Below are positions 15,066 through 33,310 of a stretch of DNA of 44,592 nucleotides, piece by piece (within the stretch, counting starts at the first letter, position 1; each line of letters starts with the position of its first letter). Location: sequence record MN158212.1, one strand, 5' to 3'. The DNA comes from Escherichia phage BEK1-1. Below the pieces are notes generated by a model. The model searched no databases. It was not told the DNA's origin and worked only from the letters and a program-made list of their open reading frames with translations. The translations under genes and the position numbers were made by a program.

Positions 15066-15111
15066 ACTATACAGCAAAACTGAATAAGTGCTTTATCAAA
15101 AAGTGCTATGC
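15066..15111 (-). promoter_or_regulatory. box promoter (variant box, 20 nt, TATAGT, leader AACTCATCGAAACGAAA) upstream of the 82-aa gene
   Basis: Direct reading of the reverse complement. Confidence 0.5.
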
Positions 15112-24860: not shown

Positions 24861-24938
24861 TGGCGCTCCGCACTGGATTCGAACCAGTAACCTACGACTT
24901 AGAAGGTCGTTGCTACTATCCTATTGAGCTAGCAGAGC
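24861..24938 (-). tRNA. tRNA-Arg (anticodon UCU)
   Basis: Minus strand reads GCTCTGC...TAGCTCAATAGGATAG...ACGACCTTCTAAGTCGT...CTGGTTCGAATCCAG...GCGGAGC-G-CCA; acceptor stem pairs 7/7 (one G-U); anticodon loop CT-TCT-AA; T-loop GGTTCGAATCC. Confidence 0.85.
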
Positions 24939-25161: not shown

Positions 25162-25416
25162 TTAGTTTTTTGAGCTTCTAATCCTTTGAAGCCTTTCGTA
25201 TGCAATCTCATCGAGCAGGCCACGACAAATCATCATATCCACCTTGCTGTTCTCGACGTGCTTGCATTTCTTGCATATTAGCTTCGTTTTGGAGCCATCC
25301 AAACAGTAAGCATCCTCGAACCATTTAATATCACGAAAGTAAACGTAATGATGCTTCTTGCAACCGTGCAAAATCTGCCTAAATGTTCTCATGCTGCCAC
25401 CATAAAGTAAGCCCAA
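25162..25416 (-). CDS. hypothetical Cys/His-rich small protein (possible zinc ribbon)
   Basis: HGCKKHH...C...CKKCKH...C pattern. Confidence 0.35.
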   Translation of the reverse strand: MGLLYGGSMRTFRQILHGCKKHHYVYFRDIKWFEDAYCLDGSKTKLICKKCKHVENSKVDMMICRGLLDEIAYERLQRIRSSKN

Positions 25417-25449
25417 GTAATCAGCCCCGCGATAAACCAGATAGTAAAT

Positions 25450-25689
25450 TCACTCATAAAGACTATTCCCATTCTCGTCATGACCGACACGACCCTTAAG
25501 ATATCCACTAGTCCAAACAAAGCGATCTCGACTAATGATTGTAAAAACCGGTTCCCACATCTTAGAAATCAACGTCGCAACATGCTTATCGTCCTTACGC
25601 TGCTTTGGCGATAGCTTGCTGTACTCTTCGTTCAACTTTGCGGCCTGACGTTTAACTGCGTTGAAGTGTGCTTCTGATAATCCGAACAT
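25450..25689 (-). CDS. hypothetical protein (79 aa)
   Basis: ORF in the early small-gene array. Confidence 0.35.
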   Translation of the reverse strand: MFGLSEAHFNAVKRQAAKLNEEYSKLSPKQRKDDKHVATLISKMWEPVFTIISRDRFVWTSGYLKGRVGHDENGNSLYE

Positions 25690-28363: not shown

Positions 28364-28385
28364 TGTTTAGCAATTCGTGCTATTC
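28340..28385 (-). promoter_or_regulatory. box promoter (AATAGCACGAATTGCTAAA, 20 nt, TATGAT, leader ACCCAATCGAAAACA)
   Basis: Direct reading; the box overlaps the TAG stop of the upstream gene. Confidence 0.55.
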
Positions 28386-28904
28386 GCCGATAATAAGCGA
28401 TTTAGCTTTCCGGTAGAAATCGACAGCCCTCTCCACCTCTTCCTCATTGTACCGCAAGTGGTATGGTAGTCTACTAGCGTGCTCACCTTCGTAAGTTTTG
28501 AAGTTAGGTTGCCAGTACTCATCAATGATAGCTGGGTGGACGTAAATCTTATCCCCAATGAGGAAAACTAGATTCATTTCCTCTAGATCAGGGATTAGTT
28601 CGTCCTTAATGCGAGCTATGATATCAAGGCATCCTACGAACGGCTTAATCTTTCGAGCCTCCTCGTGTACAGACTTGACACCCACCACTCCCCTTCCGTT
28701 TCTTGCCATCTTCCTGATCAGCTTAATCAGAACTCCCAGCGCTTCATCTCTGTAGACTTCCGATGCATCAGGCTGGCCCCATAGGTGCTGAACATGCCGA
28801 TAACCGTTAGCATTGATTGCAACCCGCAGTGGCGGTAGCCCATCCTGGATAGCAATATTCATAATCTGCTCGTCCGTCAGTTTCTCTTCATCGAAATTAA
28901 ACAT
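28380..28904 (-). CDS. hypothetical protein (174 aa), short paralogue of the 527-aa P-loop protein
   Basis: N-terminus MFNFDEEKLTDEQIMNIAIQDGLPPLRVAINANGYR and C-terminus ...NGRGVVGVKSVHEEARKIKPF...LIGDKIYVHP align with the ends of ORF 31388..32971. Confidence 0.5.
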   Translation of the reverse strand: MFNFDEEKLTDEQIMNIAIQDGLPPLRVAINANGYRHVQHLWGQPDASEVYRDEALGVLIKLIRKMARNGRGVVGVKSVHEEARKIKPFVGCLDIIARIKDELIPDLEEMNLVFLIGDKIYVHPAIIDEYWQPNFKTYEGEHASRLPYHLRYNEEEVERAVDFYRKAKSLIIGE

Positions 28905-29452: not shown

Positions 29453-29731
29453 GTTGATACCTCGTTTCGTTTACTTCGTTTCAGTGATTGCCATCTTGCC
29501 ACTTGTTTACGTGTCGGTCAACGTATTTTTATGTCTATTTCATCGCGGATACGTTTTTCGGCCTCCAAGTTAGCGTCAGCACTGGTTGTAAACGTGCCGT
29601 ATCCCCTGTGTACAGTTTTGTAGGGTACTTTCCTATATATGTGCCTTTTTATTCCTACAATGTCATCCCATTCTGACAAGTGTCAGAATATCTGCACGGA
29701 ACATATCAACTATTGCCTCCGTGAGCGGTAT

Positions 29732-29797
29732 ACACAGTATACATATATATAATAATAATAATAATAATAAAGTAAAAGGTTGATATATATAGATATT
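29732..29797. repeat. AT-rich element copy 2: ACACAGTA-(ATA)n-TAAAAGGTTGATATATATAGATATT
   Basis: Near-identical to 2928..2985, with a longer ATA run. Confidence 0.7.
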
Positions 29798-29983
29798 ATA
29801 TTGTATATCGTGTGTATATCTCGCGTAAAAACGTAGGTTAGTGGTCACTAACTTTTGTGACGACACTGAGTATACGGAGGATACGCGTATATCGATGAGA
29901 ACCTTACCGATTGGTAAAAAATCAACTTGTATGGTAGTCCATCCATCTTTCATTCACTCACTCACCACTTTATTTTACTTTTC

Positions 29984-30069
29984 GCAACAATCAAAGACAT
30001 CATTGCATCTGAAGCAATATTGCTGTATATGCAATAATCATGTGAATCATTGCAATATCTGCAACAATC
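29984..30069. repeat. iteron-like cluster (GCAACAATC x2, ATCATTGCA x2, palindrome GCAATATTGC)
   Basis: Direct reading of gcaacaatcaaagacatcattgcatctgaagcaatattgctgtatatgcaataatcatgtgaatcattgcaatatctgcaacaatcc. Confidence 0.5.
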
Positions 30070-30085
30070 CATAAATCTGACGAAT

Positions 30086-30129
30086 GGCACTTTTTGCTAA
30101 AGACACTGGAGGTCATGGAGGATATAGTT
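30086..30129 (+). promoter_or_regulatory. box promoter, half-box variant (CACTTTTTGCTAAA, about 20 nt, TATAGT, leader AACTCATCAAAACGAGG)
   Basis: Direct reading. Confidence 0.45.
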
Positions 30130-30154
30130 AACTCATCAAAACGAGGAGATAGAA

Positions 30155-30334
30155 ATGAAGATTGATAAAGATGAACTTCGTAACGAATGCGCACTGATTG
30201 GGCTTAATGAAGATTACACGAAACTTGTGGTGCGCGGAAAGTTAGACATTGACTTGGCTAAGCAATTCCAGTCAGAAGATGAATTCATGTGCTGTGATGG
30301 GCTTGGCTGCGCAGAATGTTTACCATTTATTTGA
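30155..30334 (+). CDS. hypothetical Cys-rich small protein (59 aa)
   Basis: Below the track cutoff; GAGGAG RBS; C-terminal CCDGLGCAEC cluster. Confidence 0.4.
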   Translation: MKIDKDELRNECALIGLNEDYTKLVVRGKLDIDLAKQFQSEDEFMCCDGLGCAECLPFI

Positions 30335-30344
30335 GGATTGAGAC

Positions 30345-30584
30345 ATGAAAACTCGCTGTACCAATTGCATTACAAGTACCGGCAAGAAGGTATTAACTCC
30401 ATTCGTTAAAGGCTCTGTATACGACGCTGAGCCGCTAATCATTAACGGTAAGGCAATCCCGAACGAATGGTTGATTAATGGCGCTGAGAGACCGCACAAG
30501 CACGATTCTGGATGGATTGCTATCGCTGGCTGGAAGGTTGGGATGTTTATTCCTGGGATTGCAACTTTTGACGAGGTGAAGTGA
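30345..30584 (+). CDS. hypothetical protein (79 aa)
   Basis: ORF with RBS-like GAGG; second gene of the rightward early operon. Confidence 0.4.
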   Translation: MKTRCTNCITSTGKKVLTPFVKGSVYDAEPLIINGKAIPNEWLINGAERPHKHDSGWIAIAGWKVGMFIPGIATFDEVK

Positions 30585-30745
30585 TGCTGCTGCCATCTGA
30601 GATAAATTATTTCGATCTTGAAGTCATAAGCGCATACAGCTGGAAGGGTTGGCCTTGCGGGGACTGGTTTCGCGAAGACTTACTTGAGAGTCATGAAATT
30701 ATGCTCAAGGCCATAGAAAAAGCACGAAATAGCACTAATTGCTAA
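30584..30745 (+). CDS. hypothetical protein (53 aa)
   Basis: ATG overlaps the upstream stop (TGATG); 3' end AAT AGC ACT AAT TGC TAA coincides with the box. Confidence 0.35.
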   Translation: MLLPSEINYFDLEVISAYSWKGWPCGDWFREDLLESHEIMLKAIEKARNSTNC

Positions 30746-30772
30746 ACACTGATCGCAAGGATGCGGTATTAT
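30727..30772 (+). promoter_or_regulatory. box promoter (AAATAGCACTAATTGCTAAA, 20 nt, TATTAT)
   Basis: Box and spacer nearly identical to the cor promoter (CACTGATCGCAAGGATGCG). Confidence 0.5.
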
Positions 30773-30798
30773 CTTTACATCAAAACGGGAGATAAGAA

Positions 30799-30963
30799 AT
30801 GTTCGACAACTTTCATGACGCGATAGAAGAGGCATTGTACCGCGCGTCACTTGATGGGAAGATTTACGGTTTAGTTCAGAAGGTTGACAAGATTGTTGTG
30901 CGAATCGTGCGCAAATCAGTACCTAACAAATTCATGTGGACAACTAAGAGAGTAACAAAATGA
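30799..30963 (+). CDS. hypothetical protein (54 aa)
   Basis: GGGAG RBS; below the track cutoff. Confidence 0.35.
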   Translation: MFDNFHDAIEEALYRASLDGKIYGLVQKVDKIVVRIVRKSVPNKFMWTTKRVTK

Positions 30964-31313
30964 CCAATACGATTACCAAAAACTGGATCAGCAACGAAAA
31001 TGTACTCTATAAAGCTCGCGTTAAAGATGGAGTAGAGCAAATCAAGAAAGATGGAAAATGGATTAACCTTGAAGAGCGCGGCAAGTACATCAAGACAAAG
31101 ACAATTTACTGCACAAATGTTAATCATCGCTCATCCATTCGTAAATACTTCACTGAAGGGAAGAGGTATCAAGTAGATCTCCATGCTGGACTTGGTCAGT
31201 TCGCTGGATACATTTACGATAAAGAGGGCAGCGCATGGCAGGTATATCGTGACGAAGATGTTGGCTTTGTTACAGTTTGCGGCGACTACCGCTTTGAGGC
31301 TCAATACCGATAA
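30960..31313 (+). CDS. hypothetical protein (117 aa)
   Basis: ATGA overlap with the upstream gene. Confidence 0.4.
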   Translation: MTNTITKNWISNENVLYKARVKDGVEQIKKDGKWINLEERGKYIKTKTIYCTNVNHRSSIRKYFTEGKRYQVDLHAGLGQFAGYIYDKEGSAWQVYRDEDVGFVTVCGDYRFEAQYR

Positions 31314-31387
31314 TAAGCACAAATTGACAATGAATTATAAGCGGCCGTTGATATAATGGCCGCTCAGAAACAATACGGAGACAAGTA

Positions 31388-32971
31388 ATGTTCGATTTCA
31401 ACGAAGATAAACTATCTGTTGAACAGGTTATGGCAATTGCTGCCGCAGAAAACCTCCCGCCCCTGCGCGTCGCCATTAATGCTAATGGCTATCGCCAGTC
31501 CCAGTCATTCTGGAAAGCACCAGTCGAGATTGATGCAGCTAATGACAAGTATCCAGTAATCTCACTAGGTAATGACATTGATGTTGTTGGTAAGCTGTCA
31601 GCTAATATTGCCCGATCTGTTCAGTTCCCTGAGTCGTCAGCTTACATGCACTTCCTGGGGTGTATTTCCGCTGCAATGCTGGGTCGATTTACTGTTGAGT
31701 ATCACGGAACGCAGCAACCGACTTCGCTTTACGTCGTAACAAGCCAGCCACCATCCACTGGTAAATCAGCCATTAACTCGCTATCGATTGCTCCAATGAT
31801 TGCTGAGACTCAGCGACTAAATGAAGTTAGAAAGCGTGAGCGCAAGAAAATTATGGCAAAACTATCTGCATTATCGAAAGAGATGAAACAGGAAAAATCT
31901 CCGTCAGAGATGGCCTCTCTTTTTGAGGAGAAGGAGGAGTTGGAGGAAAAACTCGAGAAACTATGCGATATCGTTTTCCCAGTATCAGATACCACACCAG
32001 AAGGTCTGGCCCGAATCAACAACCGCCAGGGCAACTTTGCTGTAATCTCTGATGAGGCAACGAGTGTAAACTCACTACTTGGCATGACCTATGGTGACGG
32101 CTCAAAGAAAACGAACAGCGAACTGGTACTGAAGGCATGGGATGCTGGTAACGTATCTATCGCTCGCGCTAACGCTGAAAACAACATGAGTTTTGTTGCT
32201 ATGGGTTGCATCTCTGTAATTGCGCAGGATGAGACAATCAACGCTATCATGAACGCTGGCGCGCGTGGTATCGGTGTATCTGAGCGTTTCCTGCTTGTAC
32301 GTGAAAAGTCATTCCTTGGCGAGCGTGTATTCGTTGATGAAAATGGCGAATCGACTTATGAACCAATTGATGCCGGGTTGAAGGCTGATTACTTCCGTTT
32401 AGTTCACGAAATCATGAATGAGCAAGATGTAAAGTTGACGGTGAGCAACTCAGCGATGAAATATCTCAACCGTGCACGTCAGGAAATGGAGCCTCATCTT
32501 GCTGACGGCGGTAAGTATTCCCACACAATGTTGCGCGGCGCGCTGGGTAAGTTCGATAAACAGGCTATAAGGATTGCAGCCGTTCTTCACACAGTTCGCA
32601 ACTGGTTCAACCCTAACGGTGGGAGTCCACAGAAGTCCAGAGAAATCGAGCTCGACACCATGCAAGAGGCTGTGATTATGTTCCAGGAACTGAGTAAGAC
32701 TTATTTGTCATCTGCCAACGCTGCGGGTCACGCTGGCGACAATGCAGAGATGAATAAGCTGATTGATATCCTGATTAAGCAAGGCAAAAACGGGAAAGGA
32801 GTAGTAGGTATTCGTTCGCTATATGAAGCGGCTCGCAAGGTTAAGCCATTCGAGGCTCAGGCTGGAGTGATGACGAAGATTAAAGATCACCTGCTGCCAA
32901 TGCTTGATGAGAAAAACTATACGTGCCTGATTGGTGATAAGGTTTACATTAATCCGCGACTTCTGGGGTGA
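31388..32971 (+). CDS. P-loop NTPase-like protein (527 aa), long paralogue of ORF 28380..28904
   Basis: Walker-A-like ...TSQPPSTGKSAI..., Walker-B-like ...FAVISDEAT... about 100 aa later; N- and C-terminal about 45 and 65 aa match the 174-aa protein. Confidence 0.5.
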   Translation: MFDFNEDKLSVEQVMAIAAAENLPPLRVAINANGYRQSQSFWKAPVEIDAANDKYPVISLGNDIDVVGKLSANIARSVQFPESSAYMHFLGCISAAMLGRFTVEYHGTQQPTSLYVVTSQPPSTGKSAINSLSIAPMIAETQRLNEVRKRERKKIMAKLSALSKEMKQEKSPSEMASLFEEKEELEEKLEKLCDIVFPVSDTTPEGLARINNRQGNFAVISDEATSVNSLLGMTYGDGSKKTNSELVLKAWDAGNVSIARANAENNMSFVAMGCISVIAQDETINAIMNAGARGIGVSERFLLVREKSFLGERVFVDENGESTYEPIDAGLKADYFRLVHEIMNEQDVKLTVSNSAMKYLNRARQEMEPHLADGGKYSHTMLRGALGKFDKQAIRIAAVLHTVRNWFNPNGGSPQKSREIELDTMQEAVIMFQELSKTYLSSANAAGHAGDNAEMNKLIDILIKQGKNGKGVVGIRSLYEAARKVKPFEAQAGVMTKIKDHLLPMLDEKNYTCLIGDKVYINPRLLG

Positions 32972-32974
32972 TGA

Positions 32975-33310
32975 ATGTTCATTTTGGATTTATACCGCTT
33001 CTGTGAGTCGTATTCATACTTTACGCGTCAGCATTTGGCGCGATTCATCTACCAACATAAGGACTCCCAGAGATTCAGTAAAGCGGCGGGGTTATCTCAT
33101 AGAGAGTTTTGCAGCGCGGCTTCAAAGGAGTTTTGCGCAAAGATGTTAACTGCTGGATACATTGATGGTAAGTGTGGTGAGTTTGTTAGCAAGGGGAGTT
33201 TGAAAAGGCCATTTGATTTCAACTTCGAGGCGCTTGGCGGGTATCAGAGCAAGTACATAAAGGAGATGATGAATATAGGAACAATGACTGACGATGAGTT
33301 ATTTGGGTAA
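32975..33310 (+). CDS. hypothetical protein (111 aa)
   Basis: ORF directly after the P-loop gene; followed by a terminator. Confidence 0.4.
   Translation: MFILDLYRFCESYSYFTRQHLARFIYQHKDSQRFSKAAGLSHREFCSAASKEFCAKMLTAGYIDGKCGEFVSKGSLKRPFDFNFEALGGYQSKYIKEMMNIGTMTDDELFG

Follow-up and report, generated by a model that had tools for sequence, protein, structure and literature searches.

The window analysed here is the 44,592-bp genome of Escherichia phage BEK1-1 (MN158212.1), a T1-like siphophage of the Drexlerviridae that stands nearest to the Braunvirinae (Veterinaerplatzvirus / Rtp-like), and the subject of this work is a small gene at the head of its rightward transcription unit, referred to below as the Cys gene and its product as the Cys protein. 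A sequence-only reading of the genome had placed a 59-codon open reading frame (ORF) at this locus, as the first gene of a rightward early operon, and had proposed that it encodes a metal-binding mini-protein directed against a host factor. The ORF exists on the plus strand, starts with ATG and has the C-terminus that had been quoted (FMCCDGLGCAECLPFI); the five cysteines that had been counted in its last 16 residues, however, are only four (Cys46, Cys47, Cys52, and Cys55), and the fifth is Cys12. Its place as first gene of the unit holds for BEK1-1 and for the phages vB_EcoS-12210I (hereafter 12210I, with ~92% nucleotide identity to BEK1-1 in this region), IME253, and JulesPiccard, but not for Rtp, UDF157lw, and phiA2-1, in which a further small ORF separates the conserved leader from the Cys gene: rtp75 ahead of rtp74 in Rtp, an acidic 64-aa ORF in UDF157lw, and a different insert again in phiA2-1. 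The coordinates of the Cys gene, its control elements, and its neighbours are collected in Table 1.

Conservation of the gene and of its cysteines

The Cys protein matches the PHROG 9053 profile over its full length (residues 1-59 to 1-59/59, E 6.2e-39), and the member of this PHROG in phage Rtp is rtp74, with 93% identity over residues 5-59; the family is thus already catalogued, albeit without an assigned function. Synteny is kept as well, in that the gene follows the divergent gap and stands upstream of an rtp73-like 79-aa gene and a T1 gp09-like helicase gene. Homologues were recovered as 89 clusters from a collection of 5.8 billion proteins and, by tblastn, from 98 phage records, nearly all of which are Rtp-like E. 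coli phages. Two records with other host labels, PP134917.1 (Pseudomonas phage PsgS01F) and MG065688.1 (Campylobacter phage A110b), consist of near-identical Rtp-like coliphage sequence (88-92% to BEK1-1 genes) and are probably contaminating T1-like coliphages or carry wrong host labels. The ratio of nonsynonymous to synonymous substitution rates (dN/dS) was 0.06-0.25 in 21 pairwise comparisons across eight genomes, with dS of up to 1.8, which indicates that the Cys gene is under strong purifying selection along its whole length, helices included. We regard it as almost certain that the ORF is a protein-coding, expressed gene.

Cys12, Cys46, Cys47, Cys52, and Cys55 are invariant in an alignment of 70 sequences, and the last four of them form a tail motif, C-C-x-(G/D)-x-G-C-x-x-C-(L/I/V)-P-(F/W), with the spacing C46-C47-x4-C52-x2-C55. 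Substitutions of the cysteines are rare and confined to singleton metagenomic sequences, Cys47 being affected most often (three times). Among the eight genomes all five Cys codons toggle between TGT and TGC, always keeping Cys, at dS values that reach 0.5-1.8. This codon pattern indicates that the cysteines themselves are under selection, as a metal site predicts. Given a Cys frequency of 1.08%, taken from the long ORFs of BEK1-1, a protein of 59 aa would contain at least four cysteines within some 10-residue span with a probability of ~5e-5.

AlphaFold2 (AF2), run with the family alignment, predicts three helices (residues 5-15, 19-26, and 32-45), Cys12 sitting in the first of them; the predicted local distance difference test (pLDDT) values exceed 90 for residues 11-40 and are 54-66 in the Cys tail. 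In an up-down-up arrangement of this sort helices 1 and 3 finish at one pole, with Cys12 and residue 45, respectively, so that Cys12 could reach Cys46/Cys47, and the modelled topology would bring it within reach of the C52-x2-C55 knuckle too. The protein has a mass of 6.7 kDa, an isoelectric point (pI) of 4.3, and a net charge of -6.5, and helix 3 is acidic too (DIDLAKQFQSEDEF); the low pI and the negative charge speak against DNA binding. Pfam gave no match at E<=10 for the BEK1-1 protein and 31 family members, NCBIfam gave none for the Cys protein, and in the PDB it has neither a sequence relative nor a fold match. When 1.84 billion cluster representatives were searched exhaustively with a hidden Markov model (HMM), nothing emerged beyond the protein's own cluster, fragments caused by frameshifts, and two artefactual matches to repeat proteins.

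Table 1. Features of the BEK1-1 genome around the Cys gene, with the genome-wide cassette copies
Feature	Position	Strand	Remarks
Cys-protein coding sequence	30155..30334	+	59 aa, ATG start, stop included
Shine-Dalgarno (SD) sequence GAGGAG	30143-30148	+	strong; 6 nt before ATG; GAGGAG or GAGGGG in relatives
Promoter cassette	30085..30144	+	putative promoter from promoter scan; conserved in 12210I, IME253, JulesPiccard, UDF157lw, phiEB49
Cassette upstream element TGGCAC-TTT-TTGCTAAA	30085-30101	+	
-35-like AAGACA	30100-30105	+	17-nt spacer to -10
-10 TATAGT	30123-30128	+	
Conserved leader CATCAAAACGA	30134-30144	+	
Array of GCAA(C/T)AATC and ATCATTGCA motifs	29984..30069	both orientations	central GCAATATTGC palindrome; just upstream of cassette
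Module gene 2	30345..30584	+	basic 79-aa protein, pI 9.1, N-terminal C5-x2-C8, PHROG 4448
Module gene 3	30584..30745	+	acidic 53-aa protein, PHROG 4548
Second cassette copy	30730..30772	+	TAGCACTAATTGCTAAA at 30730-30746; -10-like TATTAT ending 30772
Hairpin ATCGCA-AGGA-TGCGGT (ATCGCAAGGATGCGGT)	30752-30767	+	T-rich tail; in cassette spacer
DUF3987 replicative helicase	31388-32971	+	Pfam E 1.9e-41
Rightward unit	30155-33310	+	Cys protein, four small genes, DUF3987 helicase, 111-aa ORF
Divergent gap	29453-30154		702 bp between leftward and rightward units
Leftward unit	from 29452	-	~20 small genes, tRNA-Arg(TCT) (24861-24938), terminase, structural genes
C/H-rich ORF	25162..25392	-	76 aa from ATG at 25392; leftward unit, ~4.7 kb from Cys gene
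Cassette copies, + strand	3108, 3868, 30085, 30730, 36610, 40676	+	
Cassette copies, - strand	1243, 15092, 25946, 26736, 27407, 27860, 28366, 34766, 35320, 37677, 40173, 42236	-	

The variable slot and its putative promoter cassettes

The position occupied by the Cys gene varies among relatives. Phage records carrying the helicase number 906, those with the 79-aa neighbour (rtp73 / phiEB49 gp2) 137, and those with the Cys protein 98. T1 keeps the operon core (ST7, ST9, and ST10) but differs in its leading genes, and a Cys-protein analogue in the T1 operon was sought and rejected, ST1-ST6 having no Cys cluster. In phiEB49 and Sf12 the same leader and array are followed by a Cys-free, extremely acidic 72-aa protein, gp1, in the slot. 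An obligate pairing of the Cys protein with its 79-aa neighbour is likewise excluded by the distribution of the two genes, as seen in the record counts and in phiEB49 and Sf12. The slot thus behaves as a cargo site for small, often acidic proteins, as is typical of host- or defence-directed accessory genes, and the combination of acidity with a variable accessory slot is more in keeping with an accessory factor that binds proteins than with an enzyme or a DNA-binding protein. This pattern favours the general drift of a host-directed function, but singles out no target.

More than 25 kb upstream of the Cys gene carry no plus-strand gene, and the transcript must therefore begin in the 702-bp divergent gap, with an expected start near 30135. 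The ~70 nt directly before the gene are conserved in relatives and contain a putative promoter cassette that recurs throughout the genome, with 18 copies of TAGCAC-N3-TTGCTAAA against 0.62 expected (<=2 mismatches) and shuffled sequences never coming close. In its general order the cassette reads aaaTAGCAC-N3-TTGCTAAA, ~20 nt that often include a small hairpin, TATAGT/TATAAT, TAcyCCATCGAAACGA, the SD sequence, and ATG. Its orientation tracks the local direction of transcription, its TAG often doubles as the stop codon of the preceding gene, and copies stand before small-gene clusters as well as replication, lysis, and structural genes. The copy at 15092 directly follows a terminator-like GC-rich hairpin with a T-run, and the one before the Cys gene, at 30085, alone among the strong copies has TGGCAC for TAGCAC, relatives having TAGCAC at this site. 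TTGCTA in the cassette lies 22 nt from the -10 element, beyond the normal sigma70 -35 distance, and the TAGCA/TGCTA pair makes up an inverted repeat with its centre near -44, which suggests that the cassette is an activator-type or otherwise atypical promoter.

Direct copies of the cassette bracket a module of three genes, encoding the Cys protein, the 79-aa protein, and the 53-aa protein, and the final codons and the stop codon of the 53-aa gene fall within the second of these copies. The hairpin in the spacer of this copy folds weakly (-10 kcal/mol, z -1.5). At the equivalent position JulesPiccard and UDF157lw have an unrelated GC hairpin, GCCCTTCGGGGC, followed by TTTT, and a hairpin kept in position while replaced in sequence supports a role as terminator or attenuator; the comparison suggests that the 30752-30767 hairpin is a functional element of this kind. 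The arrangement recalls the PeSL (promoter-early stem-loop) cassettes of T4-type phages, reportedly described by Arbiol et al. in 2010, in that small accessory ORFs are flanked by a repeated promoter cassette which frequently contains a small hairpin. By this analogy, recombination between cassette copies can explain how modules might be swapped. The BEK1-1 cassettes differ from PeSLs, however, in their sequence and in the phage family that carries them, and they also precede structural and lysis genes. T1 has the cassette motif too, with six exact copies in 14 kb, and both the cassette-bounded module and the genome-wide cassette may already have been described in the T1 and Rtp genome papers. 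Beyond the Cys gene, a cassette-bounded slot of this type points to the sites of other exchangeable accessory genes in Drexlerviridae.

The array directly upstream of the cassette, which a repeat finder resolved into its families D1 and I1, holds three of the four GCAAYAATC copies and both ATCATTGCA copies of the BEK1-1 genome, and its conservation extends from Braunvirinae to phiEB49, a phage of the Rogunavirinae. These features suggest that it is an operator- or iteron-like candidate which could add a layer of control specific to the Cys-gene promoter. A Fur box, which would link the gene to iron, was considered at the GCAAT/ATCATT array and rejected, since its best score of 12/19 is equalled by 32% of shuffles, and an Rfam scan of the intergenic region gave sub-threshold chance matches only. 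The GTG-started 77-aa ORF at 29841-30074 (+), which ends in ...QYCCICNNHVNHCNICNNP and has overlapping ORFs annotated in some relatives, was also considered as a second Cys-rich gene; it is an artefact of translated TGCAAT repeats in the operator-like array and almost certainly no gene.

Proposed metal site, probable mode of action, and competing explanations

We propose that the knuckle of the tail (CC-x4-C-x2-C) returns to Cys12, where helix 1 ends, and that Cys12 and the knuckle would jointly bind a single metal, for which a structural Zn(Cys)4 site is the likeliest form. Such a metal clasp would stabilise a very small three-helix domain as a protein-binding module. The Cys gene, presumably transcribed by host RNA polymerase from the cassette at 30085-30128, would be the first cistron of the three-gene module heading the DUF3987 helicase unit, and its product a dispensable, lineage-restricted accessory factor, neither an enzyme nor a DNA-binding regulator, which would most likely bind a host or host-defence protein stoichiometrically as an inhibitor or decoy. 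The parts of this proposal differ in strength. It is quite probable that the Cys cluster binds metal, zinc being clearly favoured over an iron-sulphur (Fe-S) cluster; with somewhat less confidence, we lean towards protein binding over DNA binding or catalysis as the mode of action; and for a target among host or host-defence proteins we see about an even chance. The combination of all parts, a metal-clasped, protein-binding accessory factor, is accordingly offered as a tentative reading.

Several observations weigh against this proposal. Five cysteines for a four-ligand site leave one cysteine over, the best candidate for the spare being Cys47 with its three substitutions in singleton metagenomic sequences, and C47-x4-C52-x2-C55 together with the remote Cys12 corresponds to the ligand spacing of plant-type [2Fe-2S] ferredoxins. 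The Cys tail is poorly modelled, so that the proposed clasp between Cys12 and the tail is not directly visible in the model, although low confidence is as expected for a tail that needs a metal, none being modelled by AF2. Regarding timing, the cassette before the Cys gene is of the class that also serves structural genes, and this class gives no mark of early expression; the nearness of the gene to a T1-type genome end is no more than suggestive of the early class. In addition, neither an experiment on any family member nor a transcriptome of a T1-like phage was found in the literature.

Small mobile-element proteins with comparable features are known. The DksA/TraR family, including lambda Orf73, comprises small phage and plasmid C4 zinc-finger regulators that bind host machinery (PMC9239242). 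The Cys protein resembles them as a mobile-element-encoded helical protein in the size range of ~60-75 aa with a Cys4-type cluster and a proposed protein-contact mode, but it has no PF01258 (zf-dskA_traR) match and no fold match, and its cysteine pattern is not CxxC-x17-CxxC. The virulent coliphages offer another parallel, in that T7 Ocr/gp0.3, gp2, and gp5.9 are promoter-proximal, acidic, host- or defence-directed proteins. Like Ocr, gp2, and gp5.9, the Cys protein is small, very acidic, apparently non-enzymatic and dispensable, lineage-variable, and encoded by a gene heading a unit close to a genome end; none of the T7 proteins, however, is known to be Cys-rich or metal-dependent, and they share no sequence or fold similarity with it. 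No homology or fold match ties the Cys protein to any known inhibitor. Phage mini-proteins of this kind have repeatedly provided inhibitors specific for host machines or defence systems, and the Cys protein, if the proposal is true, would add another small effector in a phage group that is notorious for contaminating E. coli fermentations and is present in the BASEL model collection, for example as Bas03 JulesPiccard with gene bas03_0063. Its 59 residues, five defined cysteines, and natural presence/absence variants among near-identical phages offer a practical handle.

The alternative that survives best, although we consider it unlikely, is an Fe-S mini-protein with a [2Fe-2S] or [4Fe-4S] centre, redox-active or cluster-sensing in the manner of bacterioferritin-associated ferredoxin (BFD) or WhiB-like (Wbl) proteins, which would disturb host iron, redox, or transcription factors. 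Apart from the ligand spacing mentioned above, it can draw on GenBank record OQ243221, where a homologue is labelled 'Fer2_BFD domain-containing', on a G-x-x-C-x-x-C-(L/V) stretch that aligns with Bfd, and on the general Wbl logic of one plus three cysteines on a small helical domain. Likeness to BFD (PF04324) extends to a length of ~60 residues, helical character, at least four cysteines, and a G-x-x-C-x-x-C located ~35-40 residues past the N-terminal Cys. Nevertheless, Bfd has an invariant C4-L-C6 where the Cys protein has C12-A-L14, with Leu14 nearly invariant, so that of the BFD motif the C-x-C half is missing, and the CC doublet of the Cys protein is extra. None of the 31 members matches PF04324 or any other Fe-S family at E<=10, comparisons with the PDB by sequence profile and by fold revealed no resemblance to Bfd, ferredoxins, or WhiB, and hhalign against a Bfd profile rebuilt from verified enterobacterial bacterioferritin-associated ferredoxins returned 0.65% probability over eight aligned columns, both profiles being shallow (effective number of sequences ~2). 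On these comparisons the label of OQ243221 is rejected, and it appears to reflect a shared CxxC knuckle, not homology, although with profiles so shallow a very remote kinship keeps a small probability. As for plant-type ferredoxin (Fer2, PF00111), C47-x4-C52-x2-C55 agrees with the first three ligands of its C-x4-C-x2-C ... C spacing, but the fourth cysteine is N-terminal (Cys12) instead of ~29 residues downstream. The AF2 model is all-helical without a beta-grasp, again with no Pfam match. The lack of a Fur box in the upstream array removes a link to iron regulation as well.

Rather improbable in our view is that the Cys protein serves as partner or chaperone of a phage protein, for example in a heterodimer with the basic 79-aa CxxC neighbour that shares an intermolecular metal site and aids the replication genes. 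The 11-nt gap between the two genes suggests co-translation, the proteins have opposite charges (pI 4.3 and 9.1), the neighbour contributes a CxxC (C5, C8), and the pair is syntenic in most genomes examined, including BEK1-1, 12210I, Rtp, IME253, JulesPiccard, and UDF157lw. Yet the neighbour works without the Cys gene in phiEB49 and Sf12, in line with its larger number of records, and T1, which has the same helicase core, replicates in the absence of both proteins.

Equally doubtful is a bolder version of the metal-clasp proposal, in which the CC-x-G-x-G-C-x-x-C knuckle clasped to the helix 1 cysteine would constitute a previously unrecognised metal-dependent mini-fold, with Fe-S possibly in place of Zn, and the protein would be a counter-defence or host-takeover effector with a new E. 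coli target, carried as interchangeable cargo of the slot. As an accessory phage protein of small size in which a structural metal site is probable, the Cys protein is of an ordinary kind, and existing ideas stand.

We give still less credit to the Cys protein as a transcription factor or co-factor for its own promoters, be it a Cro-like auto-regulator or an AsiA-like sigma appropriator, acting on the GCAAT array or on the TAGCAC-N3-TTGCTAAA cassettes. The gene is the first downstream of the conserved operator-like array, the 18 atypical cassettes with an upstream element 22 nt from -10 suggest a dedicated factor, and tri-helical bundles are common as DNA- or sigma-binding modules. However, the negative net charge and the acidic helix 3 argue against it, the Cys protein has no family match to helix-turn-helix (HTH) regulators (Cro/XRE-like) and no fold match to HTH proteins or AsiA, and the DNA elements occur without the Cys protein, the cassette in T1 and the array in phiEB49; any general factor for them would thus need to be something else. 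Finally, cysteines without a metal role, used for disulfides or other covalent chemistry, are very improbable: a helical N-terminal part with a short Cys-rich C-terminus superficially resembles the precursor of a ribosomally synthesised and post-translationally modified peptide (RiPP), but neither the neighbouring genes nor the matches across the BEK1-1 genome include a modifying enzyme, the E. coli cytoplasm is reducing, and a functionless conserved remnant is ruled out by the strong purifying selection over the full length.

The second C/H-rich frame and the divergent gap

The sequence-only reading had pointed to another small early ORF, at 25162..25416, with the C/H-rich pattern HGCKKHH...CKKCKH. 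The pattern is present, but it lies on the minus strand and not in the rightward operon; plus-strand translation of 25162..25416 meets three stops. The ORF most likely begins with the ATG at 25392, in an ATGA overlap with the preceding stop codon. Its knuckles H9-x-C11-x2-H14 ... C40-x2-C43-x-H45 are invariant or nearly so in 18 homologues, His45 being kept in at least 90%, and the other two cysteines vary among them. The ORF has no Pfam, PHROG, or NCBIfam match, and its distribution is patchy, with 28 phage records at 41-84% identity. Through the ATGA it is coupled translationally to a mini-ORF upstream whose product is very hydrophobic (...MSEFTIWFIAGLITWAYFMVAA), and together the two ORFs span 25162-25520 (-). 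The closest relative, 12210I, lacks this ORF pair and has a 275-nt gap after the tRNA instead, which marks the pair as an indel-type accessory module.

In T1, ST1-ST10 at the right end are equivalent to the rightward unit of BEK1-1, and the genes from ST77 onwards, after the left-end terminal repeat, to the leftward unit; since the two ends of T1 match the two units, the divergent gap corresponds to the T1 genome terminus region. Mid-gap, at 29729-29818, lies an (AAT)7-8 microsatellite with nested AT-rich inverted repeats around it (TATACACAGTATA / TATCGTGTGTATA and others), and its position at the equivalent of the T1 terminus makes it a candidate pac or origin region. Another (AAT)n run is found near 2941.

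On the leftward side, a 174-aa protein encoded at 28380-28904 (-) is related to the 527-aa DUF3987 helicase as a 'core-less' paralogue, in which a core of ~400 aa is missing. Two segments match the helicase termini: the N-terminal ~45-55 residues (BLASTP high-scoring segment pair over residues 1-92, E 6e-18) and residues 58-126, which align to helicase residues 458-526 (E 5e-21). The paralogue gene and the helicase gene point apart across the divergent gap.

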